A stretch of DNA of 54,967 bases from an uncultured Candidatus Saccharibacteria bacterium. GTDB lineage: Bacteria; Patescibacteriota; Doudnabacteria; UBA920. Below the pieces are notes generated by a model, which was given only the letters and a program-made list of their open reading frames with translations, made no database searches and was not told where the DNA came from. The position numbers were made by a program, and so were the translations under genes. The stretch covers positions 1 to 54,967 of the forward strand of contig CAZACP010000008.1 in NCBI GenBank assembly GCA_964483665.1, given 5' to 3'. Shown here in pieces: positions 3,155 through 38,045 of this stretch. Positions within the stretch are counted from its first letter, which is position 1, and each line of letters starts with the position of its first letter.

Positions 3155-4798
3155 TTACTCTCCAGCGACTCTAAACACCTCTTCCACATCTGTTATACCT
3201 TCTAAGGCTTTAAGTAGCCCATCTTGCGCCATAGTCAGCATACCCTGCTCAATGGCGGTTTTTTTAAAATCCGACATAGAGGCTTCTTTGTTTATTAAAT
3301 TTTGTATGGCCTCGGTAACTTCCAAAACTTCGTAAATGCCAATGCGGCCTTTATAGCCAAGGTTATTGCATTTTTCGCAGCCCGGGCTGCGAAAAAATTG
3401 CAAATCTTTTGGCTGGCTGTAATCTTTGGGCATTTGGCTAAAAATCAGCTTAATTCTTTCCATTAGCTGCGGGGAAATTTTTGTCGGAGTTTTACAATCC
3501 TGGCAAATTCTGCGCACTAAACGCTGCGCCATCACGCAGGACAAAGCCGGCGAAACAATAAACGGTTTTACGCCCATATTTATAAGCCGCGGGATTGCGC
3601 CTGCCGCGTCATTGGTATGAAGCGTGGAAAGCACCAAGTGTCCGGTTAATGCTGCCTGCATGGCCACTTCCGCTGTTTCCTGGTCGCGTATTTCTCCCAC
3701 CATTACTATGTCCGGATCTTGCCTTAAAATGGCTCTTAGGCCCTTGGCAAAATTAAAATCTACATTGTGGTCTATGGGCGTTTGCACAATGCCTTCTAAT
3801 TTATATTCCACCGGATCTTCCAAGGTAATAATTTTCACCCCCGGCTCGTTTAACTCGTTTAAAAATGCGTAAAGACTGGTGGTTTTTCCGCTGCCGGTCG
3901 GACCCGTAGTAATAACCATTCCATTGGGACGCTGGAGTATTTTTTCCACAATTTCTTTTTGTTCTTGTCTAAAACCCAAAGAGTCTAATTTTAACTCAGA
4001 GTTGTTGTTGCCAAGCAATCTCATAACCACTTCTTCGCCGTAAGCTGAAGGCAAAACCGAAACGCGCACGTCTATTGGCCCGCCTAAATAAGTAAAAGTA
4101 ATACGGCCGTCCTGCGCCTGGTTTTCTACATTTAGTTTTAATTTGGCTAAAATTTTTATGCGCGTAATTATTTGCCTTTGCAAACTTTTGTTTATATGCA
4201 GCATATCCTGCAAAACTCCGTCTATGCGGTAGCGCAGTTTTAGAAAATGCTCTTCCGGTTCTAAATGTATGTCCGAGGCTCTAAGCAAAACAGCTCCGCC
4301 AAAAAAGATTTCTAAAAATTGGCTGGCAGTGGTTGTAAGCTGCAAATTTTCTTCTGCTAAAGCCTTTAACTGCTTGGTAAAATCTTGCTCTTTTTTTACG
4401 TCTATAGCTTCGTCGTGGGTAGCTTTAGGTCTTAAAACTTTGCTATAAAATTTTAAAGTTTTTTCCAAACTCCTTTTAGAAATTATATACAAAGTAACCT
4501 TGTTGTCTTGCGACAACTCGCGAATTTTTTCTAAAAGCAACGGGTGCTTAGGGTTAACCGTGCCGATTCTTAAATCTTTAAGCTCTTTATAAAAAGGCAC
4601 AGCCAGCATTTCTTTAGCTTCTTCTTCCAAAAAAATTCCCAAAACATTTAAATCCACGGGAAAATTATGCAAATCTACGTAAGGCAAACCCAAAGCCGCG
4701 GCCGCGCTTTGGGCCTGCTGCTCTTCCATTTTGCGGTTAACTTCGTCCATGCTTCGAACCAAATCGGCCGGGGTTTGAGCGAGAAAATTTTTACTCAT
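3155..4798 (-). CDS. GspE/PilB-family type II secretion/type IV pilus ATPase
   Basis: ASDIHLEP, GPTGSGKTT Walker A, LRQDPDIVMVGEIRD, TGHLVLSTLH, Zn-binding CxxC pairs. Confidence 0.95.
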   Translation of the reverse strand: MSKNFLAQTPADLVRSMDEVNRKMEEQQAQSAAAALGLPYVDLHNFPVDLNVLGIFLEEEAKEMLAVPFYKELKDLRIGTVNPKHPLLLEKIRELSQDNKVTLYIISKRSLEKTLKFYSKVLRPKATHDEAIDVKKEQDFTKQLKALAEENLQLTTTASQFLEIFFGGAVLLRASDIHLEPEEHFLKLRYRIDGVLQDMLHINKSLQRQIITRIKILAKLKLNVENQAQDGRITFTYLGGPIDVRVSVLPSAYGEEVVMRLLGNNNSELKLDSLGFRQEQKEIVEKILQRPNGMVITTGPTGSGKTTSLYAFLNELNEPGVKIITLEDPVEYKLEGIVQTPIDHNVDFNFAKGLRAILRQDPDIVMVGEIRDQETAEVAMQAALTGHLVLSTLHTNDAAGAIPRLINMGVKPFIVSPALSCVMAQRLVRRICQDCKTPTKISPQLMERIKLIFSQMPKDYSQPKDLQFFRSPGCEKCNNLGYKGRIGIYEVLEVTEAIQNLINKEASMSDFKKTAIEQGMLTMAQDGLLKALEGITDVEEVFRVAGE

Positions 4799-6695: not shown

Positions 6696-7922
6696 ATGAA
6701 ATATAAATTAATATTAACAATTATTTTACTTGGTCTGCCTTTAACCGGGCGCGCGGCTAACACGCCGGCGGGTCTTTCCGCTGGCCAAGATTTTGTAATT
6801 AATTTTAACGAACAAACTTTTAAATTGCCGGCTGATCAGCTTAGCAAACTAAAAGGCTCCTACCAAATACCTAAAAACAGCAATTTAATTTACAAAACCT
6901 CTACCCAGGAAGAACTGGCGTCGGGATTTTTAAGCGGCCAACTACCAAGCCCAAAAATTGAGACAGTAGTTTTTAGTTTTGATCCGGCCGGTATTTATAA
7001 ATTTGTAACGCAAACAGCCAATGCAGTTGCTAAAAATCCGGTAGAGCCCAGGTTAACAATCCAAAACAATTTTGCAATAGACTTCGCTCCCCCGTCTGAC
7101 GGCATTTTTGTCGACGCTTCGGCCAATACTTTAAAAATTTTAACCGCGCTACAAAACAAGCAAACTTCGCTGGATTTAATTTTTTCCACCTCCAGCCCCA
7201 AAACCCGCCTTTCGGGTACGAATAATTTAGGCATAAACGAACTTATTGCAACAGGTGTTAGCAATTTTAAAGGAAGCCCCTCAAACCGGCGCCACAACAT
7301 AAAAGTTGGCGTGCAAAAATTTAAAGGCCTAATTATAAAAAAGGGAGAAGAATTTAGTTTTAACAAATATTTGGGTCCGGTAGAAGAAGAGCAGGGTTTT
7401 TTGCCGGAATTGGTTATTAAAAAAACAGGCACAGTACCGGAACTTGGCGGCGGGCTATGCCAAGTTTCCTCCACCACTTTTAGAGCCGCAATGGAAGCAG
7501 GATTGCCCATAACCCAAAGAAAAAATCACGCTTACGCCGTGCAATACTACTCTCCTCAAGGCACAGACGCGACCATTTACCCCGGAATTGTGGATTTAAA
7601 ATTTAAAAACGACACTCCGGGAGCAATTTTAGTCTGGCCGCATTTTGAGGCCGGCGACACTTTAATTTTTGACTTCTACGGCAGTAAAGACAATCGGGTT
7701 GTAACTTTGGAAAAGCCCAGGCAATACGACAGAAAACCTGACGGCAGTTTAAAGGCAGAGTGGACACGGATTGTCGAAAAAGACGGAGTAATTTCTTCCT
7801 CCACTTTTAAATCTATTTACCAGCCCCCGGCACTGTTCCATAAAGAAGAAACTTTTGTTACCGCTCCGCCCACTGGCGGACCCACCCCAACACCCGCTCC
7901 TAGCCCAACGCCAACTTTGTAA
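6696..7922 (+). CDS. VanW-family protein with signal peptide and Pro/Thr-rich tail
   Basis: GEEFSFNKYLG, GGGLCQVSSTTFRAA, GTDATIY, DLKFKNDT. Confidence 0.9.
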   Translation: MKYKLILTIILLGLPLTGRAANTPAGLSAGQDFVINFNEQTFKLPADQLSKLKGSYQIPKNSNLIYKTSTQEELASGFLSGQLPSPKIETVVFSFDPAGIYKFVTQTANAVAKNPVEPRLTIQNNFAIDFAPPSDGIFVDASANTLKILTALQNKQTSLDLIFSTSSPKTRLSGTNNLGINELIATGVSNFKGSPSNRRHNIKVGVQKFKGLIIKKGEEFSFNKYLGPVEEEQGFLPELVIKKTGTVPELGGGLCQVSSTTFRAAMEAGLPITQRKNHAYAVQYYSPQGTDATIYPGIVDLKFKNDTPGAILVWPHFEAGDTLIFDFYGSKDNRVVTLEKPRQYDRKPDGSLKAEWTRIVEKDGVISSSTFKSIYQPPALFHKEETFVTAPPTGGPTPTPAPSPTPTL

Positions 7923-7928
7923 TAAATC

Positions 7929-7960
7929 AAACGCGGAAACGAACAAACGTTTCCGCGTTT
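7929..7960. terminator. Bidirectional terminator between vanW and the convergent cargo genes
   Basis: aaacgcggaaacg-aacaaa-cgtttccgcgttt. Confidence 0.8.
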
Positions 7961-7974
7961 TTTAGTTTTCTTTC

Positions 7975-8322
7975 CTATTTCGGATGAAGTCGGTGATGTT
8001 TCTGCCCCTGACAATACCAATGCCCAGGACCGTAAACCACTCTATGAGCGAGCACCCACCCCCCGTCGGCCAAGACAGCTAAAACAAAGACGGGCACCAA
8101 AACAAGCAAAAACTTCCTGCTTAAAGCAACGCCAATATATTCCCTGTGGCCAACCCAGGGGTTTATAGAAAACAGGAACAACCACAAAGCGATTATTCCA
8201 ATAAAACCCAATACCACCTGAGTCCTAGGCATTGTGTCAATGGAAAAAGTTCTCCACCACACACGATAAAACGACACCGAAGCCGTAAGAGCCAAAGCAA
8301 GCATCAAGGTAATACTTTTCAT
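7975..8322 (-). CDS. Hypothetical membrane protein (cargo of trmB-1)
   Basis: 115-aa ORF with about 3 hydrophobic segments; SD GGGGAGG upstream. Confidence 0.7.
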   Translation of the reverse strand: MKSITLMLALALTASVSFYRVWWRTFSIDTMPRTQVVLGFIGIIALWLFLFSINPWVGHREYIGVALSRKFLLVLVPVFVLAVLADGGWVLAHRVVYGPGHWYCQGQKHHRLHPK

Positions 8323-8342
8323 TCTGCCTCCCCTTTTAAATA

Positions 8343-8714
8343 CTACTTCATTCTTCCTTCGCTAAAGTATCCGCCCTCGAGCAGTTCGAGGTACTCTTCG
8401 GGCGCAAAACAACCGATCGCGTATGGCACACATTTCCTCCGCTCGCTTTTCCGTACGGCTAAAATAAAACGGCCCTTGCCCCGAAACCTACTGCGCGTTG
8501 CCTGAATTTTGTAATCCTTATCTTCCAGGCGACTCTCCAAGTCAGCTTTCGCTTCGGCATAGTTCGAAAAAAGGCTAAGTTGAGTGGCAAGCGCCCGAAG
8601 GTTTGGAAATTGACTCCGCGAAGTATTCGGGCACATAAGCACAAACACCTCCGGCCCAAAAATCTCTGTAATTGCTGAAAGCATTGCGGCTTTTAGCTGT
8701 TTAGTCTTGTCCAT
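8343..8714 (-). CDS. Hypothetical protein (cargo of trmB-1)
   Basis: 123-aa ORF; SD AGGAGG upstream; divergent from trmB-1. Confidence 0.7.
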   Translation of the reverse strand: MDKTKQLKAAMLSAITEIFGPEVFVLMCPNTSRSQFPNLRALATQLSLFSNYAEAKADLESRLEDKDYKIQATRSRFRGKGRFILAVRKSERRKCVPYAIGCFAPEEYLELLEGGYFSEGRMK

Positions 8715-8837
8715 ATTTTCCCTCCTGTTTGGGAACTAACAATTTTTTCAAAATTTAAGTAAAATGTCAATTTTGTTGATTTATTTTATAGCATTTAATA
8801 AATTTGACTTAATTTTAAAGCTATTTTATAATTATTT

Positions 8838-8857
8838 TGTTGTCGAAATTTACAACA
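8838..8857. promoter_or_regulatory. Candidate operator TGTTGT-N8-ACAACA between the trmB-1 promoter and its start codon
   Basis: tgttgtcgaaatttacaaca lies just downstream of TTGACT-17-TATAAT. Confidence 0.6.
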
Positions 8858-8861
8858 TTAT

Positions 8862-9608
8862 ATGCATAATTTAAGCCTTATACCCCTGCTTAAACAGTCA
8901 GGGCTTAGTGAAAAAGAAGCCAAAATCTATCTGTCAGGCATAGAAATCGGCGCTGCCAGCATCCAAGACTTAGCCGAGCAAGCCAATATAAAAAGACCAA
9001 CCGCCTACGAAATTGTTGAAACCCTTGAAAAAAAGGGGTTATTTTCCGTAGTGCTTGAAGGAAAAAAGAGAAAATTTTTAGCTGAACAGCCGGAAAGAGT
9101 TTTGGCTTTATTTAAAATCCGTGAACAGGCGTTCGTGAAATCCTTACCTGAGCTAAATCTGTTATTTCAAACTGGCGGCAATAAACCAAAAGTCAAATTC
9201 TATGAGGGCACGGAAGGGTTGGAAGCTATGTATTTAGATACCTTAGAAAGCAAGCAAACAATATTAGTCTACGGCAATATAACGGAAATGTGGGGTGCTA
9301 TATCCCGCGACTTTAAGAAGGAATATATAAAAGCCCGGGTTAAAAAAAATCTTTGGTCAAAATGTATTGTGCCAAACACTCCCGAAACTATGGAATATAG
9401 CAAAAAAGACAAGGAAGAGTGTAGGCAAATGATATTCGTGCCAAAAGAAAATTTTAGCTTCCAAAACGAAATAGATATTTACAATGACAAAGTCGCCATT
9501 TTTTCATTTCCCGAAAAAATCGGCGTTATTATAGAAAGCAAAAAAATCGCGGAAACGCAAAAAATGATTTTTAACCTGGCCTGGCTAGGAGCCTTACAAG
9601 CAATTTAG
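8862..9608 (+). CDS. TrmB-family transcriptional regulator (paralog 1)
   Basis: N-terminal wHTH ([11 protein letters not shown]...[18 protein letters not shown]); C-terminal PKVKFYEG...EIDIYNDKV effector domain. Confidence 0.88.
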
Positions 9609-9627
9609 AAACTGTTATAATACCCCT

Positions 9628-10773: not shown

Positions 10774-10986
10774 ATGGACTTTACCACCGTATCTAACTTA
10801 ATAATTCAGGCCTTTTACTACATACTCGTGTTGCTGGTTTTATTTTGCAGTATTTTTGGAATATACGCGCTCGTTCGCTATGGCCGGTCTCGAACTTTTT
10901 CACTGGTATTAAGCCTTGTCTATATATTCTTTTTTTTAACCGCCCTGTCCCAGTCCTACTCCGCTTTGCAAAAAATCCTTTCTTAG
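10774..10986 (+). CDS. Small two-helix membrane protein
   Basis: 70-aa hydrophobic ORF collinear with ruvB. Confidence 0.7.
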   Translation: MDFTTVSNLIIQAFYYILVLLVLFCSIFGIYALVRYGRSRTFSLVLSLVYIFFFLTALSQSYSALQKILS

Positions 10987-10993
10987 CTTTACC

Positions 10994-11068
10994 AAATACT
11001 AATCTGTACAAATATACTAATAGGGTACAAAAAAATTAGTATATTAGTATTAATTCGTATTTAGTAAA
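10994..11068. repeat. 75-bp TACTAAT/ATTAGTA quasi-palindromic element, copy 1
   Basis: Last 34 nt are 32/34 identical to 35062-35095; same length as copy 2. Confidence 0.8.
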
Positions 11069-11622: not shown

Positions 11623-11648
11623 TTATTAATAATTGTTAATTGATAACT

Positions 11649-12089
11649 ATGCCTACTACCGTTGTTGTTTCCGGAGGGTTTGACCCAATTCACATTGGCC
11701 ACATAGAAATGATGCAGGAAGCCAAAGCATTGGGCGATAAGCTAATTGTCATTGTAAACAATGACAATTGGTTAGTTGCAAAAAAAGGTTTTGCTTTTAT
11801 GCCCGAACAAGAGCGTTTGGCTATAGTAAAATCTATTAAACACGTAGACGAAGCGGTCTTAACCGGCCACGAAAAAAATCCAACCGACATGTCGGTTTGC
11901 AAAGAGCTGGAAGAATTAAAGCCGGACATATTTGCCAATGGCGGCGACCGAAAACCCGACGGCGACCCAGTTCCGGAAGTAGAATTATGCAACCGCCTAG
12001 GAATTAAATTAGTTTACAATATAGGTAAAAGTGGAAAAATCCAAAGCTCAAGCGACTTGGTAAAAAAAGCAGTACAAAACAAGGCCTAA
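11649..12089 (+). CDS. Cytidylyltransferase-family (HIGH motif) nucleotidyltransferase
   Basis: VVSGGFDPIHIGHI, FANGGDR, KIQSSS. Confidence 0.9.
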   Translation: MPTTVVVSGGFDPIHIGHIEMMQEAKALGDKLIVIVNNDNWLVAKKGFAFMPEQERLAIVKSIKHVDEAVLTGHEKNPTDMSVCKELEELKPDIFANGGDRKPDGDPVPEVELCNRLGIKLVYNIGKSGKIQSSSDLVKKAVQNKA

Positions 12090-12103
12090 CCGGCCTTGTT
12101 TTT
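12077..12103 (+). terminator. Terminator T1, overlapping the stop codon; duplicated at 13673-13699
   Basis: aaaacaaggcctaaccggccttgtttt. Confidence 0.85.
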
Positions 12104-12205: not shown

Positions 12206-12739
12206 TCATTTCTTGACCCACCTAATTGCGAAAATTACATTGATACGATTACGTTCAAACATCGGCGCCCCCCATAAAAACAATGGCGTGTAGGGAATTT
12301 TGTATTCTACCCTTGGACCAGTGCCCTTGTAGCGTTCGGTAAGAATACCGACTCTGAGCGATTTTGACACTTTTCTATTCAACTCGGTCTTCAACCAAAA
12401 CCCGCTGCCACCATATTCGGGAATAAATAAGACCGATGTTTTAGCATTACCCATCCAAACAAATCCTCCTGCCCGAGCCGGGTTCTTGGCCTCCTCTATC
12501 CCAACACCGCCTGCGAGCTGTAGCCAAGGCTTTGGGTCGTAGGTTAGTCCGCCGTAGCTTTCACTGTAGCCTTCTTGGGTTTGGAACCAAACAAACGCTC
12601 CGAGCTTCCCCGAAAGCCTTCCAGTAATCAACCCGTCGATCCTCGGTGTAACGCTGCCCGATGATACGAAAGTTCGTTGCTCAACCCACGTTTGCGCGAT
12701 TGCGGCGCAAGAAACTAACATCGCAAATAATAGCTTCAT
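12206..12739 (-). CDS. Secreted protein with amphipathic beta-strand pattern, possibly a beta-barrel (cargo of trmB-2)
   Basis: Start MKLLFAMLVSCAAIAQ at 12739 after SD GGAGG; about 10 alternating-pattern strands. Confidence 0.7.
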   Translation of the reverse strand: MKLLFAMLVSCAAIAQTWVEQRTFVSSGSVTPRIDGLITGRLSGKLGAFVWFQTQEGYSESYGGLTYDPKPWLQLAGGVGIEEAKNPARAGGFVWMGNAKTSVLFIPEYGGSGFWLKTELNRKVSKSLRVGILTERYKGTGPRVEYKIPYTPLFLWGAPMFERNRINVIFAIRWVKK

Positions 12740-12878
12740 AGATCCTCCGAACGAGATTCTTGTTAGCCAGCATCCTAGCGTAACCAGCAATAATGCCAAA
12801 AAAATGCATTAGTGTCAATAATTTATAGTCAAAAATAAATAAAATTGCTAAAATTAATCACAAATAAAGCAATAAAAC

Positions 12879-12897
12879 TGTTGATAGTTTTTCAACA
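12879..12897. promoter_or_regulatory. Candidate operator TGTTGA-N7-TCAACA over the trmB-2 -35 box
   Basis: tgttga tagtttt tcaaca; promoter TTGATA-17-TATTAT ends 6 nt before the ATG. Confidence 0.7.
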
Positions 12898-12915
12898 ACA
12901 TGTTATTATTTTGCC

Positions 12916-13686
12916 ATGATACCAGAACTCCTAAAACAACTTGGTTTTGGCGACAAGGAAATTGTGGTTTACACCACATTGCTTCAGCATGGCAAACTTA
13001 CTCCCGCGGCTTTGGGCAGGATTGCCAAAATAAATCGAACCACCGTTTACAGCACGGCTAAAGAGCTGGTGCAAAAAGGCGTAATTGCCGAAGACTTAGG
13101 CGGAGCTAATTTGTATTTGGTGGCAAAACCACCGTCAGATTTAGACAACTTATTAAAAAAAGAGGAAAAGCAGTTGCAAGAAAAAAAAGTCATAATAAAA
13201 AACGCCATAGAAGAACTCCAAGGCATTACAAAAGCCACACAGTACACTATCCCTAAAATTATTTTTAAAGCTCAGGAAGAAGTCGAAGCTCACCTTTATG
13301 AACAAACTCCTAAATGGGACGAGAGTATTTTAAAATACGATGGTATTTGGTGGGGCTTTCAGGATCACACTTTTGTCCAGCATTACGAAAAATGGATAGA
13401 TTGGTACTGGCAAACCGGTTCGAATCCGGCAACGAAGTTAAAACTTTTAAGTAACGAGGTTGCAGAAAAAATTAAAAAGACCAAATATGAAAGAAGGCAA
13501 ATTTCTTTTTGGAAAGAAAGCCATAACTTTAAAACCACCACCTGGATACTGGGCGACTACGTTGTTATGATAGTCACAAATCAGCGCCCGCACTATTTAG
13601 TGGAAATTCACGACGCAACGCTTGCCCACGACCAACGAGAAGTCTTTAAAGGTATTTGGAAAACACAAATAGAAAACAAGGCCTAA
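12916..13686 (+). CDS. TrmB-family transcriptional regulator (paralog 2)
   Basis: wHTH LGFGDKEIVVY...INRTTVY; C-terminal domain clearly paralogous to 16320-17090. Confidence 0.88.
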   Translation: MIPELLKQLGFGDKEIVVYTTLLQHGKLTPAALGRIAKINRTTVYSTAKELVQKGVIAEDLGGANLYLVAKPPSDLDNLLKKEEKQLQEKKVIIKNAIEELQGITKATQYTIPKIIFKAQEEVEAHLYEQTPKWDESILKYDGIWWGFQDHTFVQHYEKWIDWYWQTGSNPATKLKLLSNEVAEKIKKTKYERRQISFWKESHNFKTTTWILGDYVVMIVTNQRPHYLVEIHDATLAHDQREVFKGIWKTQIENKA

Positions 13687-13699
13687 CCAGCCTTGTTTT
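13673..13699 (+). terminator. Terminator T1', copy of 12077-12103
   Basis: aaaacaaggcctaaccagccttgtttt, 26/27 identical. Confidence 0.85.
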
Positions 13700-13710
13700 G
13701 TTTTTTTGTG

Positions 13711-13736
13711 AGTAACTATTCGCGCGAATAGTTACT
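13711..13736. repeat. Perfect loop-less 26-bp palindrome
   Basis: agtaactattcgc|gcgaatagttact. Confidence 0.9.
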
Positions 13737-13762
13737 AGAATAAGTGTTTTTATTTTTCTTCT

Positions 13763-13864
13763 TTAACTTTTCCAAACAGGTTTAAACCTACTTAGAAAAA
13801 TTCCCGAGTAGTGACAGAGCCACTTTATAGCCTCTCGGGATAGGCGGTTTGGGGAGCGATTCAT
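13763..13864 (-). pseudogene. Short SD-led ORF after the ABC ATPase, possibly a truncated next gene of the donor operon
   Basis: GGGGAG SD, then MNRSPNRLSREAIKWLCHYSGIFLSRFKPVWKS*. Confidence 0.35.
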
Positions 13865-13880
13865 TGTTCTACTCCCCTTG

Positions 13881-14624
13881 TTAAAGCTTTCCGGGCATAA
13901 CGCGTCGGAGGAATTCTTGTGTTCGCGGGTGCTGAGGACTGCCCAGCACCGCATTCGCCGCACCGCTCTCAACAACGTGGCCGTGGTCAAGAAAAATTGC
14001 CTGGTTAGCAATCTCTTTGGCAAACCCAATATGGTGAGTTGCCATTACCACGGTCGTACCGGTTGATACTACGTCTTTGACCACATCAAGCAATTCCCAG
14101 ACAAGTTCCGGGTCAAGCGCGGAGGTGATTTCGTCGAGAAGCAGAACTTTGGGCTGTATTGCCATAGCCCGCGCGATTGCTACTCGCTGAGCTTGACCGC
14201 CGGAAAGAGTTGCTGGATAAGCATTTTCTTTTTCCGACAGCTTGACCTTGATAAGCAGTTCGCGCGCGCGGCCTTCGGCTTCAGAACGCCTCATTTTCAG
14301 AATCTGTGTGGGCCCTAGCGTGAGGTTTTCCAAAACCGTTAGGTGTGGCCAGAGGTTTAATCCTTGGAACACCATGCCTACGCGCTGACGCAGTAGTCCA
14401 TTGACCTTAGAGCCAGGCGTGATCTGGAATTCTCCGTCTAGAAGACGAATTGCCCCGGAGTCAATCGGCGTAAGGCCGTTTAAGCAACGAAGAAGTGTTG
14501 TTTTGCCGGAGCCACTGGGTCCAACCAGGGCGAGAACCTGACTCCTCTCGAGTCCGAACGATATTTTGTTCAGTACCTGGAGCTGACTAAAGCTCTTTGA
14601 CACCGAACTTACTTCAACTAACAC
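13881..14624 (-). CDS. Polar amino acid ABC transporter ATP-binding protein (GlnQ-like)
   Basis: GPSGSGKTT, LSGGQAQR, LLLDE; GTG start at 14624. Confidence 0.93.
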   Translation of the reverse strand: MLVEVSSVSKSFSQLQVLNKISFGLERSQVLALVGPSGSGKTTLLRCLNGLTPIDSGAIRLLDGEFQITPGSKVNGLLRQRVGMVFQGLNLWPHLTVLENLTLGPTQILKMRRSEAEGRARELLIKVKLSEKENAYPATLSGGQAQRVAIARAMAIQPKVLLLDEITSALDPELVWELLDVVKDVVSTGTTVVMATHHIGFAKEIANQAIFLDHGHVVESGAANAVLGSPQHPRTQEFLRRVMPGKL

Positions 14625-15255
14625 GAAAAACCTTCCTTTCCAGCCGCCTAACTGAATATTCAAGCGGCAGAATGATTGCTAAATAGAGAATCGCAAGAGT
14701 TGTGTAAACCTCAAACGACTGTTGCGTTAGGGCAATTATACTTCCGCCCCTGTTCAGCAATTCTGCAACACCAATAGTCGACGCCAAAGACGTCAGCTTA
14801 ATGGTTGTGACATACTCGCCAAACAGGTTAGGCAGCATATTTCGTAAGGCCTGTGGTAAAACTATATACCACAAAACCTGCCGAGAATTCATGCCCATTG
14901 AAAGTGCGGATTCACGCTGAGAAACTGAAACCGATTCCAGCCCCGCGCGAATGTTCTCCGCGTAAAAAGCCGCGCCGTTTAAAGCAAGGCCTACAGCAGA
15001 AGAAAAAAACGCCGAGAAAGCAACTCCGGTCAGCATCGGCAAGCTGTAGTAAATCCAGAGCAATACCACCAGTGGCGGTACTGCGCGAAAAGCCACAACA
15101 TACCCGACGACAAGAGCCCGCAATACCACAAACCGATAACTCTGAACCCAAACTAGCGTGACACCAAGAATCGTGCCAAACATAACCGCTAGGCACGACA
15201 GCCCCACGGTAGTGAGCAGGCCATAGAGCCAGGCCTGCCAAAACTGAAACAACAT
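14614..15255 (-). CDS. Polar amino acid ABC transporter permease
   Basis: AENIRAGLESVSVSQRESALSMGM (EAA loop), IVLPQALR. Confidence 0.93.
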   Translation of the reverse strand: MLFQFWQAWLYGLLTTVGLSCLAVMFGTILGVTLVWVQSYRFVVLRALVVGYVVAFRAVPPLVVLLWIYYSLPMLTGVAFSAFFSSAVGLALNGAAFYAENIRAGLESVSVSQRESALSMGMNSRQVLWYIVLPQALRNMLPNLFGEYVTTIKLTSLASTIGVAELLNRGGSIIALTQQSFEVYTTLAILYLAIILPLEYSVRRLERKVFRVS

Positions 15256-15266
15256 ATCTTTTCCTT

Positions 15267-16082
15267 TCAACGAATGTCCGATTGCCAGTTAGCGCCGTAC
15301 TTCTCTTCTAACTGTTTAAGTACGCCGCGAGTCTTAAGAAAGTGAAGCGAGGTGTCTAAAAACCGCAGCCAGTCCGGGTCACCGTAACGAACCGCGAACG
15401 AAGCCGGATTTAAGGCGAACTGCTTTTTTGCAAACAAATCCACCAAGTCGCTGCGGGTGGCTGCAAACTTTGCGATTTGATTGCTGTCAGCAATTGCCAC
15501 ATCGGCGTTGCCCGTAACCACATCGAGCATAAATCGCGAAATCTCTGCGGCCTCAACATTGGTACGGTTGAGCGTAGCCTTCTTGAACTCGGCGGTGGCA
15601 AACAAGTCGCCCGCTTCGCCTGTTGCCAAAACCACCCTTACCCCTGGCTGGTCAAAATCGGAAATCAGACCGAATTTCTCAAATCTGCTTCCGCGCCTAA
15701 CCAAAGCACTAAGTCCCATGTACAACACCGGTTGAGTAAACGCGATTGATTGAGCTCTCTCGATATTAGCAAACATAGGAGCCACAATTACATCCGCGCG
15801 TGCCGACTGCAAGGTTGCGGCCGCATTGCCATAGGTGGTTTCCGTCCACTCGATGCGTGCATTCATGCGCTCGGCGATAATTTCCATCGCCTCGACCAAA
15901 TGCCCGCTATATTCTCCGGTAGTCGCGTTCTTAATGACCATAGGAGAATCTATGACCGTAGCCGCACGGATAACGCGTGTGCGCCGCACTTGGTCGAAAA
16001 TTGACTCCCCCTGCTGCCCCGTTCTGGCGCAACCAGAAAGAATCAAAAATGACACCAAAACTAACAAAAGAATTCTATTCAT
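15267..16082 (-). CDS. Polar amino acid ABC transporter substrate-binding lipoprotein (SBP family 3)
   Basis: Lipobox LSGC; IERAQSIAFTQP; SD GGGAGG before the ATG at 16082. Confidence 0.9.
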   Translation of the reverse strand: MNRILLLVLVSFLILSGCARTGQQGESIFDQVRRTRVIRAATVIDSPMVIKNATTGEYSGHLVEAMEIIAERMNARIEWTETTYGNAAATLQSARADVIVAPMFANIERAQSIAFTQPVLYMGLSALVRRGSRFEKFGLISDFDQPGVRVVLATGEAGDLFATAEFKKATLNRTNVEAAEISRFMLDVVTGNADVAIADSNQIAKFAATRSDLVDLFAKKQFALNPASFAVRYGDPDWLRFLDTSLHFLKTRGVLKQLEEKYGANWQSDIR

Positions 16083-16193
16083 TGTGCCCTCCCTTGGGCT
16101 TGTCAAAGTTCTCTGTTCCGCAAAATAACGGAAAGGTTATTGTTATATTTAACTGTCACAATAACCAAGTATAATACCATATTTTCAACAATA

Positions 16194-16300
16194 TGTCAAT
16201 AATAATTCAACAATTTCCTTAATTTTGCTTTAAACAAAAGTAAAAATATTGTTGATTAAACTTCAACAAATATAAATTTGTTGTTGACAATTAATCAACA
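16194..16300. promoter_or_regulatory. Divergent promoters with three TGTTGA-N7-TCAACA-type operators
   Basis: Perfect sites at 16250-16268 and 16282-16300, a variant at 16194-16212. trmB-3 promoter TTGACA(16284)-17-TATAAT(16307); cargo promoter TTGACA(16199-16194)-17-TATTAT on the minus strand. Confidence 0.75.
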
Positions 16301-16319
16301 TTTTGCTATAATATGAAAT

Positions 16320-17090
16320 ATGATAGCAAACTTACTTAAAAATTTTGGTCTAAACGAAAAAGAGGCTCAAATTTACTTGGCAGTTTTAAAACAAGGTAGG
16401 GCTGCGCCTGCCCATATTGCACAAGTTACTAAAATAAACCGCACCACGGTTTACAGCGTGGCTAAAGAGCTTATAAAAAAAGGCTTTTTGCTTGAAGACC
16501 TGGCAGGGGGGAGCACTTCGCTAGTTGCGGTTCCACCTCAGGAATTAAAATTCTTGGTTCAAAAAGAAGAAAAGGAGCTGGAAAATAAAAAGCAGCTCAT
16601 AAGCCAAATGGTTAAGGAGCTGGAAAATTTTACCAAAGATTCCAAATACGCCATTCCTAAAATTACTTTTATACAAGAACAGGACTTAATGGATTACTTA
16701 TATAAACGCGGTGATGAGTGGCATAAAAGCATTATGAAGTACGACGGCATACTGTGGGGTTTTCAGGACCATACCTTTGCCGAACATTATGAAAAGTGGA
16801 TAGAGTGGGAGTGGAAAATTGGAGGGCCGAAAGATTTACGCCTGAGACTTTTTTCCAACGAGTCCGAAATCGAAGAAAAGAACAAACAAAAAGGCAAAGA
16901 GTTTGAAAGGCGTATAATAAAATACTGGAAAAAACCAAACCAATTTACTGCTTCTGTTTGGGTGCACGGGGATTATTTAGTTTTTGTCCAAACTCAAAGC
17001 CGGCCTCATTATTTAGTGGAAATTTATGATGTCTTGTTAGCCGAAAATATGAGGCAATTTTTTGCTGGCGTGTGGGATGAAATAAAATAA
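16320..17090 (+). CDS. TrmB-family transcriptional regulator (paralog 3)
   Basis: FGLNEKEAQIY...INRTTVY; shares MKYDGILWGFQDHTF-type motif with paralog 2. Confidence 0.88.
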   Translation: MIANLLKNFGLNEKEAQIYLAVLKQGRAAPAHIAQVTKINRTTVYSVAKELIKKGFLLEDLAGGSTSLVAVPPQELKFLVQKEEKELENKKQLISQMVKELENFTKDSKYAIPKITFIQEQDLMDYLYKRGDEWHKSIMKYDGILWGFQDHTFAEHYEKWIEWEWKIGGPKDLRLRLFSNESEIEEKNKQKGKEFERRIIKYWKKPNQFTASVWVHGDYLVFVQTQSRPHYLVEIYDVLLAENMRQFFAGVWDEIK

Positions 17091-17099
17091 CTTTTCAAT

Positions 17100-17153
17100 C
17101 ATGACCAACGAGAAGTCTTTAAAGGCATTTGGAAAACACAAATAGAAAAATAA
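17100..17153 (+). repeat. Orphan copy of the trmB-2 3' end (HDQREVFKGIWKTQIEK*)
   Basis: 48/50 identical to 13627-13676; both differences synonymous. Confidence 0.9.
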
Positions 17154-17188
17154 AAAGACCGGCGGACACACATTTCCGCCGGTCTTTT
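17153..17188. terminator. Bidirectional terminator
   Basis: aaaagaccggcgga-cacacatt-tccgccggtctttt. Confidence 0.85.
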
Positions 17189-17192
17189 TATT

Positions 17193-18338
17193 TTATGCTT
17201 TTAGTTCCACCTCGCTTGGGGAAACGGGCATTATTACCACGTCAAAACCTTCTTCTCTTAAGCTGGTATAAATTCTATTAAATTCAACTTCTTGCATACG
17301 TTCTTCTGGCGCTTCGGTTAGTAGCGGACGAAGCTGTATTACTGTATTTTCTGGTCCAAACCCCTTTTGTTTAAAAACCTCGGGTCTTATTTCCGTTTCA
17401 TTATTGCACACAAAAGTTAAGGTTGGTTTTCTAACTGTTTTATAGCCTTTATTTATTTGCGCATCCACAATTTGTTGGAACTGCTCAGCTATTTCATTCA
17501 GTGGCAACAATAATTTTTCCATCCTATTTCCTTTATGCTCCTCAGTCTCACCTGGCTTATCCGGTCGTTGATTATACACATGCAAAGCGCGCTTTTCTTC
17601 GTTAGTGCTCTGAGCAGAAACCTGGACACTTATTACCGGCTCCCCATTATAATCTGGACTGCTATAAATATCAGCAACAACCTGCATAGGGGTCTTTCTG
17701 TCTTTATTGACTTTTCCCGCAACAGTAGAAATTCTCACCCTTGAAATTGTGTTGCTAAAATCTTTACAAACCATTTCCAAAATATCTTTTAAATGAGGAT
17801 TAGGAGTCGCGTCACCACTCCCAACAAAAGCAATGCCAAATTTCTTTCCCTCTAGCAAAGGACTAACCTTTTTAGCTTCCCTCAAGCTTTCTTCTATTAA
17901 AAGCCTTATTTCTTTTGGACTTAACTCCTTGGTCTTTTTACCTTCATGTCCTTCTGCGTGAGCCGCAAAAGGACACCCCTTGCAATCATATGGGCATATC
18001 CCCCCCTGCAGGGGTAAAAGCAATGTTGGAGAGTTTTTATCTATATAAGCTTCTATGACAGCCCTTCCGTTTTCGGGATCATTTTTATAATTAAATAGTT
18101 CCCAAGCTGCCTTGGACTTTAAGCTCCTTACCCCTGTATAACCGGCCATAACCGCGGTTGAATAATGCAAATGCTGAACATCCCCTGAGCCAGACCTGGT
18201 TTCTTTTTCGTGCCAGCGCATCAAAACACTGTCATCGATAGAAAATTTTTCTATGGCCTCTTCCCCGTCTTTTAGCTGTATTGTCTCAGAATGCGCTGGG
18301 CTATCGCTAATAATTTTAAATTCTGGATGTTCCTTCAT
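17193..18338 (-). CDS. Radical SAM protein, RlmN/Cfr-like scaffold lacking the catalytic cysteines
   Basis: CPYDCKGC (CxxxCxxC); motif order matches RlmN by eye; start overlaps the rsmE stop. Confidence 0.75.
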   Translation of the reverse strand: MKEHPEFKIISDSPAHSETIQLKDGEEAIEKFSIDDSVLMRWHEKETRSGSGDVQHLHYSTAVMAGYTGVRSLKSKAAWELFNYKNDPENGRAVIEAYIDKNSPTLLLPLQGGICPYDCKGCPFAAHAEGHEGKKTKELSPKEIRLLIEESLREAKKVSPLLEGKKFGIAFVGSGDATPNPHLKDILEMVCKDFSNTISRVRISTVAGKVNKDRKTPMQVVADIYSSPDYNGEPVISVQVSAQSTNEEKRALHVYNQRPDKPGETEEHKGNRMEKLLLPLNEIAEQFQQIVDAQINKGYKTVRKPTLTFVCNNETEIRPEVFKQKGFGPENTVIQLRPLLTEAPEERMQEVEFNRIYTSLREEGFDVVIMPVSPSEVELKA

Positions 18339-35011: not shown

Positions 35012-35020
35012 ATATTTATT

Positions 35021-35095
35021 AAATACTAATAATTACTAATATACCAATCCTTTTGTTTGATATTAGTATATTAGTATAGATTCGTATTTAGTAAA
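35021..35095. repeat. 75-bp TACTAAT/ATTAGTA element, copy 2
   Basis: Homologous to 10994-11068. Confidence 0.8.
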
Positions 35096-35096
35096 T

Positions 35097-35369
35097 CTAT
35101 TCATCTGTAGATTCTAAACCAAACATTTCTTCTATGAGCTGATATTTATTATGCAGCATTTCCCGGTATTCTCCTAATTCCCATTTAGCGTCGCCACTTG
35201 CCTGCTCATATTCTTCTTGGGTGTCTTTAAGTTCTTTGTCTATGTCCTCCAAAATTTCGTAAGCCTGGTCTTCGGTTTGCGGAGCCTGGTCCATCCACTC
35301 GTCAAAATCCATAGTTAAAAGTTTCTGATATTTTTCTTCGTATATTTCTTTTAATTTTGCCAAATCCAT
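35097..35369 (-). CDS. Acidic helical hypothetical protein
   Basis: 90-aa ORF, host-like codon usage, collinear with rsmI. Confidence 0.75.
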   Translation of the reverse strand: MDLAKLKEIYEEKYQKLLTMDFDEWMDQAPQTEDQAYEILEDIDKELKDTQEEYEQASGDAKWELGEYREMLHNKYQLIEEMFGLESTDE

Positions 35370-35759: not shown

Positions 35760-36542
35760 TTATTTATTTGAATTTCTATCAAGTCTTTTTGCTTCCGCCC
35801 ACGCAAGGTTATAAATTGTTTTCATAGCGGCACTTATTTCTTTGCTTTCTATAATTATGCCAAGTTTTTCTTTCCAAGAAGCTATCATTACTTTGTTATC
35901 ATAAATATTTATTTCGGGTGAAAAGTAAACTTTGTCAGCCGGTACGAGCGCGGATTCCCTAGCTTCCTCCGCGTCTTTGCCCGCTCTTTCTACCCCAGCT
36001 TCGTTGGAAGGAACTATGGCTTTTATATGAATGCCTTTATTGGTTCTTCTTTTGTAATATTTAGGAAAATAATCAGGCAAGGCTTTGTGCATTTCGTTTA
36101 CGTTAGCATAAGCTAAAATGGTTTCGTGCGATGCTAGTGTGTCCTCATAAACTTGCTCAACACCCTTCATGCCCTCATAGAACATAACTTTCGGCCTATC
36201 TGTAATATTGTGTAGAGATTTAAGCTGTGGCACCAAATTTTGTGCTTGTAAAAGCTCTTGTTGTTTTGTTTCTATTTCATCTTGAATTTTTTTTAATATT
36301 TTGTCCGGGCTTTCAGCGACGTATTCCTGAAGCGGTTCTTTGCCTGAAATACTAACCAAGCCTTTTGAAATTAAAGACTCTAAGATGTCATAAACCGTAG
36401 TTCTGTTTATACCCGACTTTCTGGCAATTGGCGAAACAGTTCTTTTGCCTAATTCCAATAAAGCCAAATAGACCAAGGCTTCTTTTTCAGAAAAACCAAT
36501 CGAAATTAGACTTTTATATAGAGGAGAGTTAATGTCTAGCAT
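35760..36542 (-). CDS. TrmB-family transcriptional regulator (paralog 4)
   Basis: Start MLDINS at 36542, 6 nt after TATACT; GFSEKEALVY...INRTTVY; PKVMFYEG; EINIYDNKV. Confidence 0.88.
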   Translation of the reverse strand: MLDINSPLYKSLISIGFSEKEALVYLALLELGKRTVSPIARKSGINRTTVYDILESLISKGLVSISGKEPLQEYVAESPDKILKKIQDEIETKQQELLQAQNLVPQLKSLHNITDRPKVMFYEGMKGVEQVYEDTLASHETILAYANVNEMHKALPDYFPKYYKRRTNKGIHIKAIVPSNEAGVERAGKDAEEARESALVPADKVYFSPEINIYDNKVMIASWKEKLGIIIESKEISAAMKTIYNLAWAEAKRLDRNSNK

Positions 36543-36653
36543 ATATAAAGTATATGCTATTTCTTGAATTGTGTCAATAGCTTTCCACAAAAAATATAAA
36601 ATATAGAAATTTAGCCTAAATAAAACCTTTTTACACAATGAAAATGACGCTTA

Positions 36654-37268: not shown

Positions 37269-38045
37269 TTATTTTTTACCGTCCTGTCTTTTCGCCTCAA
37301 GCCACGCCAGTTCAAATATCTTTTTCATCGCCTCGGCAATTTCGGCACTTTCTATGGTGATACCAAGTTCTTCGCGCCAAGAGGCTATCATAATTTTGTT
37401 GTTGTAAATATTAATTTCTGGAGTAAAGGAATATTTGTCGGCAGGGACCAGCGCGGTTTGCCTTATTTGAATTTTGTCGTCTTTTCTAAGTTCCCTTGCG
37501 GCTGGGGTGTCCGGAAAAATTGCGCGAATAGGAATTTTCTTTTTTGCACGTCTAAAGTAATAGTCCGGAAAATATTCAGGCAAAGCCACGTTGTTGTCTT
37601 CAACATGGGCAAAAGCCCGAATAGGCTCCTTGGAAGTTAAGGTGTCTTCGTATACTTCTTTTATGCCTTCCATTCCTTCATAAAATCTAACCTTTGGCCT
37701 GTCTTTTACATTATGAATACTTTTAAGTTGCGGGATTATGTTTTTTGCTTGTTCTATAAACGCTTGGTTTTTTTCTATGTAGTGGTTAAACATAGCAATT
37801 ATTTTGTCTGGGTTTTCCGCCGCGTATTCTTGTTTTGGCTCTTTGCCGGAAATATTTACTACCCCCCTGGTAAGTAACGAATTTAAAATATGGTAACAAG
37901 TAGTTCTGTTTATAGCTGCTCTTTGTGCTATTTGTGATACAGTACCCTTGCCAAGTTCGAGTAAAGACAGATAAATGTCTGCTTCTTTGCTCGAGAAACC
38001 TAAAGTGATAAGCGAATTTTGAAGTATAAAATGTTGTTCTTGCAT
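37269..38045 (-). CDS. TrmB-family transcriptional regulator (paralog 5)
   Basis: GFSSKEADIY...INRTTCY; close paralog of 35760-36542. Confidence 0.88.
   Translation of the reverse strand: MQEQHFILQNSLITLGFSSKEADIYLSLLELGKGTVSQIAQRAAINRTTCYHILNSLLTRGVVNISGKEPKQEYAAENPDKIIAMFNHYIEKNQAFIEQAKNIIPQLKSIHNVKDRPKVRFYEGMEGIKEVYEDTLTSKEPIRAFAHVEDNNVALPEYFPDYYFRRAKKKIPIRAIFPDTPAARELRKDDKIQIRQTALVPADKYSFTPEINIYNNKIMIASWREELGITIESAEIAEAMKKIFELAWLEAKRQDGKK

Follow-up and report, generated by a model that had tools for sequence, protein, structure and literature searches.

Introduction

The process termed homology-facilitated illegitimate recombination (HFIR) has been documented in transformable bacteria and was proposed to explain the orphaned 3' regions of toxin loci, which provide the precedent for gene displacement of this type (PMC5361080, PMC3240628); the work on naturally transformable species is that of de Vries & Wackernagel 2002 and Prudhomme et al. 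2002, as cited in PMC5361080. Here we describe a comparable arrangement in a stretch of 54,967 nucleotides (contig CAZACP010000008.1 of assembly GCA_964483665.1, in full length referred to as the window), whose genome is judged, from the source names of its homologues, to belong to Candidatus Doudnabacteria (Patescibacteria). In this window, 50 bp from the 3' end of trmB-2, a gene of the TrmB family, recur just behind a second gene of this family, trmB-3, and the two copies enclose an ATP-binding cassette (ABC) transporter operon. A preliminary description had proposed that the ABC/trmB-3 module of ~3.5 kb entered at a trmB gene, which would make the repeats similar to attachment (att) sites, or that it replaced an earlier trmB-2-type cassette. 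From the comparison with relatives, we consider it probable that each of the two copies is the 3' end of a different occupant, successive or alternative, of a single slot in the chromosome, and that they do not mark the borders of an inserted element. The locus is thus regarded as a new case, in an uncultured lineage, of an already known event, namely gene displacement combined with cassette stacking.

Results

The two copies of the repeat

Direct reading and a repeat search both place the copies at 13627–13676 (CACGACCAACGAGAAGTCTTTAAAGGTATTTGGAAAACACAAATAGAAAA) and 17100–17149 (CATGACCAACGAGAAGTCTTTAAAGGCATTTGGAAAACACAAATAGAAAA). As had been reported, they agree at 48 of 50 positions, and the two mismatches, CAC/CAT (His) and GGT/GGC (Gly), are synonymous. 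The only matches to a 47-nt pattern were these two sites, whereas 100 shuffles gave an expectation of 0. Copy 1 is the functional 3' end (HDQREVFKGIWKTQIE) of trmB-2, an open reading frame (ORF) of 256 amino acids (aa) at 12916–13686 on the plus strand, which terminates in HDQREVFKGIWKTQIENKA and a stop codon. Copy 2, hereafter the orphan (17100–17152, plus strand), starts 9 nt past the stop of the second 256-aa ORF, trmB-3 (16320–17090, plus strand), and is in frame with it; it reads HDQREVFKGIWKTQIEK and, as previously noted, has its own stop and terminator. This terminator, T2 (17147–17194; 20-bp stem, z = -7.9), is strong, very stable and bidirectional; it serves trmB-3 and the orphan on one side and a convergent radical-SAM gene on the other, and its 5' arm overlaps the last codons and the stop of the orphan. 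The interval separating the copies holds trmB-3 and the minus-strand ABC operon, which is of the amino-acid type. By Pfam, trmB-2 and trmB-3 belong to the TrmB family and are predicted regulators: the N-terminal winged-helix domain PF01978 scores 45.7 and 48.3 bits, respectively (gathering cut-off 25.6). The two proteins share 48% aa identity.

The 48/50 identity was rejected as a sign of a recent duplication, given that the trmB-2 ends of other species (L021 and L046; L0xx labels designate loci or genomes of relatives) match either copy about equally well, at 46–48/50 over the same positions. An element acting at the nucleotide level over the 3' end of all trmB-2 genes was also rejected, the identity of synonymous codons being unexceptional there (0.52–0.54 vs 0.48 gene-wide).

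The slot and the origin of the orphan

The region adjoins the dnaA-dnaN-recF-dciA cluster. In 20 or more species-level loci the order VanW-RuvB-o183-CTPt-<o197-trmB-2-(slot)-<RsmE-DciA-RecF-DnaN-DnaA is kept (type A; < marks the minus strand). The conserved left anchor of the variable slot is CTPt, a cytidylyltransferase-like gene (11640–12089, plus strand; Pfam CTP_transf_like) that is syntenic in all relatives. It is followed by o197 (12206–12799, minus strand), which is divergently paired with trmB-2 and has orthologues at the same position in type-A genomes. In these genomes the 3' end of trmB-2 lies immediately upstream of the RsmE operon, which is convergent with it, and the space behind trmB-2 is empty in some and filled by 0.7–5 kb of unrelated genes in others. 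Comparison thus gives the o197/trmB-2 pair as the normal occupant between CTPt and RsmE-DciA-RecF-DnaN-DnaA in Candidatus Doudnabacteria.

The window and its nearest relatives, L042 and L043, depart from this order, as do L037 and L038, which are closest by core genes (RecF 95%, RuvB 94% and DnaA 90% aa identity, compared to 60–80% for type-A genomes). The slot of L037 and L038 holds a trmB-3-type gene, without trmB-2, o197 or the ABC operon; in L038, for example, the layout is CTPt-T1-X-<254aa-trmB-3-orphan-T2-<rSAM, where T1 and X are hairpins described below and rSAM is the radical-SAM gene. In the window, L042/L043, L038 and L037, the orphan follows the trmB-3 stop behind the same 9-nt spacer, C(T/C)TTTCAAT (17091–17099 in the window, CTTTTCAAT). 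It is intact in L038 (50/53 to the window) and decayed in L037, with a 1-bp deletion that shifts the frame. When 59 full-length trmB-family genes from non-redundant loci were scanned, a downstream orphan was found only at trmB-3 of the window, L042, L038 and L037, a restriction to one lineage that speaks against the earlier suggestion that trmB 3' ends serve generally as recombination sites.

Because L038 and L037 carry the orphan without an upstream trmB-2 or an ABC operon, the orphan predates the present arrangement, and it did not arise when the segment that today separates the copies came in. Moreover, it occupies the position of the trmB-2 3' end in type-A genomes, being followed by T2 and the radical-SAM gene or RsmE. 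For this reason the orphan is best read as an in-situ relic of a resident trmB-2-type gene, which the trmB-3 unit would have displaced in the common ancestor of the four lineages. Both the position and the shared, inherited junction are those expected of a displacement relic.

In L039 and L040, an orthologue of trmB-3 (74% aa) stands next to gyrA in divergent orientation to an ABC operon (72, 58 and 72% aa), with no orphan behind it. The ABC proteins and trmB-3 have diverged equally from those of L039. The hairpin X also terminates the ABC operon at the gyrA locus of L039. The gyrA neighbourhood of the window contains the L039 gene set with ABC/trmB-3 absent, and an X-like scar was looked for at this place and not found. 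Since the neighbourhood is kept without these genes, the series X-<ABC-leader-trmB-3 appears to be an old linked unit relocated into the CTPt-RsmE slot, with trmB-3 as the apparent ancestral partner of the ABC operon. Base composition had been considered as a sign that the ABC operon is recent and foreign, and this was rejected: the L039 operon also has ~50% GC in a 42% background, so that the GC jump in the window would be a property of the operon and not of a recent import. The conserved o197 gene is GC-rich as well, which also counts against such an origin.

Two parts of this unit recur whatever lies between them. Hairpin X (13791–13845, minus strand) has the form cccgag...ctcggg with an inner stem, is identical at 55/55 positions in L037 and shows compensatory changes in L038 and L039; because a T-run follows it on the minus strand, it is probably the terminator of the cargo operon. 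The divergent promoter/leader (16156–16319), which contains TGTTGA-N7-TCAACA palindromes, is kept in every locus and across all cargos. These palindromes, together with perfect -35/-10 boxes, are seen in both divergent leaders of the region (16107–16319 and ~12800–12915), and are likely TrmB operators.

We therefore propose, for the first event, that in the ancestor of the window, L042, L038 and L037 the resident cassette was replaced through illegitimate recombination by a unit comprising terminator X, a cargo on the minus strand, most probably the ABC operon, the divergent promoter/leader and trmB-3, as still found intact beside gyrA in L039. The right-hand join would have fallen 50 bp before the old trmB-2 stop, so that the last 17 codons, the stop and T2 survived as the orphan (type B). 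The earlier idea of a replaced trmB-2-type cassette is thus retained as to the origin of the orphan, and it is to be modified as to the actors: the replacer would be the trmB-3 unit, in an ancestor of four lineages, and the present trmB-2 a separate, stacked cassette. Microhomology at the displacement junction (17099/17100), sought against the L039 sequence downstream of trmB-3, is too weak to be claimed.

Conservation of the orphan

The stretch comprising spacer, orphan and T2 is 93% identical between the window and L038, compared to 36–62% for other intergenic regions and 57–65% for third codon positions (binomial P = 1e-8, or 0.003 with a conservative neutral rate). The orphans of the window, L042 and L038 have accumulated only 1–3 changes, well below the number at neutral sites; the three between the window and L038 are all synonymous. 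Decay is confined to L037, in which T2 and the radical-SAM gene were lost. Given these features, the frame shared with trmB-3 and the presence of the region in metatranscriptome contigs, the orphan may have been retained for a function of its own, as a 3' untranslated region (3'-UTR) or terminator-context element, as a small RNA or as a read-through extension of TrmB-3. We consider this unlikely. No conserved RNA structure is supported in the orphan besides T2, there is no covariation, and no Rfam family matches; in the Rfam scan only tRNAs elsewhere reach the gathering score, E-value matches at the terminators being noise. The L042 orphan carries a non-synonymous change and that of L037 the frameshift. 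In addition, the identity of synonymous sites is also raised in the adjacent 3' end of the radical-SAM gene (80%, declining to 61%), a pattern pointing instead to a recombination tract of younger age, and the RNA contigs are unstranded and may include DNA.

Three explanations of the conservation may be considered: a 3'-UTR or terminator-context role, gene conversion keeping the orphan similar to trmB-2 copies, and a younger recombination tract over 17060–17700, the last being possible because the radical-SAM synonymous sites are raised too.

The metatranscriptome contigs are from wastewater (runs X15–X18; X-numbered runs are sequencing runs examined as contigs). Runs X1–X4 come from wastewater samples in which this strain occurs. 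They cover trmB-3, the orphan, T2 and the radical-SAM gene (17107–17226), with DNA carry-over possible. One contig of 1231 nt joins hairpin X, a small cargo and trmB-3, and ABC sequence was not found in runs X15–X18.

Stacking of a second cassette

CTPt ends in VQNKA, and its stop codon sits within T1 (12074–12102; AAAACAAGGCCTAACCGGCCTTGTTTT), its native bidirectional terminator hairpin. This ending, NKA, stop and T1, is common to L037, L038 and L047. In L037 and L038, T1 is followed by a spacer and X, exactly as a second copy of the hairpin, T1' (13673–13699), is in the window. The product of trmB-2 ends in QIE-NKA: codons 1–253 belong to the gene itself, whereas the terminal 3 and the stop derive from the T1' copy. 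The last 12 nt of the gene and T1' duplicate the CTPt end and T1, in an in-frame fusion at GAAAA/CAAGG (13676/13677) that is common to the window, L012, L042 and L044. The structure of the window can be written as (T1-<o197-trmB-2...50 bp)(T1'-X-<ABC-trmB-3-9 nt-50 bp)-T2. Because T1 is native to the CTPt end, and because in L037 and L038 it leads into spacer and X, the two staggered repeat pairs appear to delimit two alternative occupants of the slot, stacked in tandem at 13676/13677.

We then compared the o197/trmB-2 cassette with those of L046 and L047, both of type A. Identity to the window is 78–82% aa for o197 and 92% aa for trmB-2, and the block formed by the CTPt 3' end, T1 and spacer of L047 is 92–95% identical at the DNA level. 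The core proteins are much further apart (RsmE 64%, DciA 59%, RecF 68%, DnaN 60%, DnaA 75%). Because the cassette is far closer than the core genes (59–75%), these comparisons indicate that o197/trmB-2 was exchanged horizontally. Moreover, L012, L021 and L042 show mosaic identity to the window, with patches of 98–100% and of 50–85%, and o197 is hypervariable, with 71.5% aa identity between the window and L042, less than to the distant L046 and L047, though its flanks are 94–100% identical.

In the second event, the o197/trmB-2 cassette would have been placed upstream of the trmB-3 unit in the lineage of the window, L042 and L012. The joint at the microhomology GAAAA/CAAGG would have cost trmB-2 its own last codon(s) and made it read into T1'. 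The most economical mechanism would be HFIR with a type-A donor, anchored on the left in CTPt/T1 and joined illegitimately on the right. As expected for HFIR, the left block from the CTPt 3' end through T1, spacer and o197 to trmB-2 is collinear with L047, and the right joint falls at the microhomology. Displacement followed by acquisition through HFIR is the simplest history, because the cassette is so close to those of L046 and L047 and the identity profiles are mosaic.

The same structure could be reached in the opposite order. The segment T1-<o197-trmB-2 would first be duplicated in tandem at an AAAA microhomology, the interior of the second copy would then be replaced by X, cargo and trmB-3, and L037 and L038 would lose the first copy by deletion between T1 and T1'. 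The staggered pairs (T1..50 bp)(T1'..50 bp) are the exact signature of a tandem duplication, the function of trmB-2 and o197 would never be lost at any stage, and the identity of the window's trmB-2 to type-A species (75–78%) resembles that of core genes. However, this route needs at least 3 events compared to 2, and it has to accommodate a cassette that is anomalously close to those of the distant L046 and L047, showing horizontal movement. Furthermore, trmB-3 of L037 and L038 is only 80% identical at the DNA level though their CTPt genes are 94% identical, and a single shared deletion is not obviously the simplest explanation. We regard duplication before displacement as distinctly improbable.

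A further observation concerns exchange in this region. In L021 (3760–4731), RuvB is 91% aa identical to that of the window, whereas other core genes are 56–72% identical. Its trmB-2 has a DNA identity to the window of ~62% at the 5' end, climbing to 93% towards the 3' end. Both patterns point to inter-species mosaicism. The window also encodes a T2SSE/type IV pilus-type ATPase at 3155–4798.

Exchange of the cargo

The ABC-transporter cargo (13846–16155, minus strand) is the segment in which the window differs from its nearest relatives. By Pfam it encodes an ATPase (13881–14663), a permease (14614–15270) and a binding protein of family SBP_bac_3 (15267–16106). In L012, L042–L045 and several runs, it is replaced by a gene for a 113-aa membrane protein, on ~320–480 nt in L042, L012 and L044; L037 carries a shorter homologue of this gene and L038 a 254-aa gene, and run X3 holds both cargo variants. 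The left edge of the polymorphism lies at 13845, the end of X, and the right edge within 16156–16500, in the leader or the first ~180 nt of trmB-3, where the identity between the window and L042 climbs from 87% to 100%. The swap of ABC operon, 113-aa membrane protein and 254-aa protein is thus ordinary homologous replacement through conserved arms, with X on the left and the leader together with the trmB-3 5' end on the right; the repeats are not its boundaries. No Pfam family was found for o197, o123 or the alternative cargo proteins of 113, 67 and 254 aa.

A broader interpretation would make the locus a recombinase-free platform for cassette exchange, in which portable homology arms, namely X and the leader with the trmB-3 5' end, would allow cargos to be exchanged, and in which the orphan is selected as a functional 3' element. 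We put this forward only tentatively and think it improbable. If it were true, membrane and transport cargos would be swapped under one TrmB regulator across Doudnabacteria, and whole regulator cassettes would move between species that are 60–75% identical in core proteins.

It should be noted that several independent assemblies break their contigs at ~15063–15132, the junction of the ABC permease and binding-protein genes, which strain variation or low coverage may explain. Metagenome contigs were also scanned with two proteins, the radical-SAM protein and the ABC binding protein, and neither gave a match.

Tests of an integrative element

The first alternative of the preliminary description would amount to an element of ~3.4 kb integrated by site-specific recombination at the 3' end of trmB-2, with the 50-bp copies as attL and attR and the element supplying a replacement gene end. 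Direct 48/50 repeats do bracket the segment, both copies keep their reading frame, stop and terminator, and type-A relatives run trmB-2 directly into convergent genes; these are, however, distant species and do not represent empty sites of this module. Several observations are at odds with the proposal. The orphan exists in L038 and L037, which have neither the upstream trmB-2 nor the ABC operon. The segment that varies among close relatives is 13846–16155 and not 13677–17099, so its breakpoints, at 13845 and 16156–16319, do not coincide with the repeats. A Pfam scan of all ORFs from 8.8 to 23.3 kb revealed neither an integrase nor a transposase domain; it returned CTP-transferase, TrmB, ABC (three times), radical SAM, RsmE, DciA, RecF, DnaN and DnaA, and there is no relaxase in or near the module. 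A 13676-to-17150 joint, as expected from excision or an empty site, was not seen in the contigs of 12 DNA or RNA runs, in which rare events may be missed. The target is not recurrent, with no second case among the 59 trmB-family genes, and the fusion of the supposed replacement end to a copy of the neighbouring gene's terminator is left unexplained. We consider an integrative element very improbable. The two junctions in trmB-2-type sequence (17099/17100 and 13676/13677) also lie ~50 bp apart, which further weakens the view of trmB 3' ends as recombination sites, and the locus is an ordinary, though busy, recombination hotspot beside the replication-origin gene cluster.

Run X6 contains a weak chimeric joint, 13413 to 16956, with a depth of 2.9, a 31-nt side and 12/71 mismatches; it was rejected as a trmB-2/trmB-3 hybrid and assigned to a further paralogue from another organism.

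An assembly artefact or chance similarity, for which nothing speaks beyond the general risk in metagenome-assembled sequence, can be dismissed, because at least 7 independent assemblies or samples agree (10 contigs, 99.8–100% identical to the window) and a single contig of 15 kb runs across the two copies; no chance match is expected, and the structure is also present in diverged relatives.

Other features of the window

Between T1' and X lies a perfect 26-bp palindrome (13710–13737, AGTAACTATTCGCGCGAATAGTTACT), found only in the lineage of the window, L012 and L042–L045. The radical-SAM gene (17193–18338, minus strand) is accessory to the slot: the window, L042 and L038 have it, whereas L037 and all type-A loci lack it.

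Five TrmB-family paralogues are encoded within the 55 kb, at 8862–9608, 12916–13686, 16320–17090, 35760–36638 and 37269–38045, the last two on the minus strand. Of these, trmB-1, trmB-2 and trmB-3 were examined, and each has a membrane or transport gene as its divergent partner. The trmB-1 cassette (7913–9622; minus-strand genes of 115 and 123 aa, then trmB-1) is a second TrmB-cassette indel: it is missing in L042, where VanW adjoins RuvB, and its flanks are 99–100% identical to L042 on the left and ~90% on the right, with no flanking repeat seen. An 85-nt inverted repeat (10984–11068 and 35015–35099; 81% complementary, with a 34-nt core at 94%) is located upstream of o183 and near the fourth trmB paralogue, and has a match in L042. 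No paper on TrmB in Patescibacteria was retrieved when the literature was searched.

Discussion

Our comparison replaces the mobile-element reading by a better-supported history, in which one cassette was displaced and another stacked upon its successor at a hotspot near the replication-origin cluster. It provides sequence-level evidence that reduced Doudnabacteria genomes trade regulator-transporter cassettes across rather distant species through homologous and illegitimate recombination, without a dedicated recombinase. It also shows that short direct repeats at gene ends can be historical relics and not att sites, which calls for caution when islands are called in metagenome-assembled genomes.

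Several points weigh against this history. The orphan is conserved far above the neutral level (50/53 between the window and L038), which a pure scar model fails to predict; such conservation of a relic could point to a functional 3' element. Among the relatives, no type-A genome as close as L037 and L038 was found, so that the order of displacement and stacking is tentative, and o197/trmB-2 may have moved either into or out of the window's lineage. The ancestral cargo is ambiguous, given that co-divergence with L039 favours the ABC operon and parsimony on (window, L042), L037 and L038 favours the small gene. Finally, natural transformation in the Doudnabacteria lineage is assumed, and the metagenome contigs (Logan) may miss rare excision events.

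The closest described systems are the Rhs and contact-dependent inhibition (CDI) toxin loci and the effector-immunity arrays of the Vibrio cholerae type VI secretion system (PMC5361080). There too, most of a resident gene gives way to an incoming module and its 3' remnant is moved downstream; this relic persists beside the new gene and passes to descendants, a dedicated recombinase plays no part, and the proposed mechanism combines a homologous anchor on one side with an illegitimate join on the other. In contrast to these loci, the displaced gene here is a TrmB-type regulator paired with a membrane or transport cargo and not a polymorphic toxin; there is a single relic instead of an array, without an encoded immunity or stand-alone product; and no conserved 5' part of the gene anchors the displacement junction.

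The stacking junction resembles HFIR (PMC3240628) in that one end lies in the shared CTPt/T1 and the other at a 4–5 nt microhomology, GAAAA/CAAGG, between unrelated sequences, and in that foreign DNA is inserted with a short duplication of the anchor region. It differs in that the mechanism is deduced here from sequence comparison, and the route through tandem duplication gives an equal junction. With elements that integrate in the 3' end of tRNA or protein genes, the locus shares a direct repeat of a gene end that brackets accessory genes and leaves the upstream gene intact. Unlike them, it has no integrase or precise empty site, its downstream copy exists alone in relatives, its variable segment ends elsewhere, and its supposed replacement end is a copy of a neighbouring terminator.

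Lastly, the locus is similar to recombination hotspots or flexible genomic islets, in which varied cassettes at a fixed site between core genes, here on the dnaA-dnaN-recF side, are swapped through flank homology. It differs from them in that the arms include parts internal to the cassette, namely X, the leader with its putative operators and the trmB-3 5' end, and because of these internal conserved parts the cargo would be exchanged under one and the same regulator.

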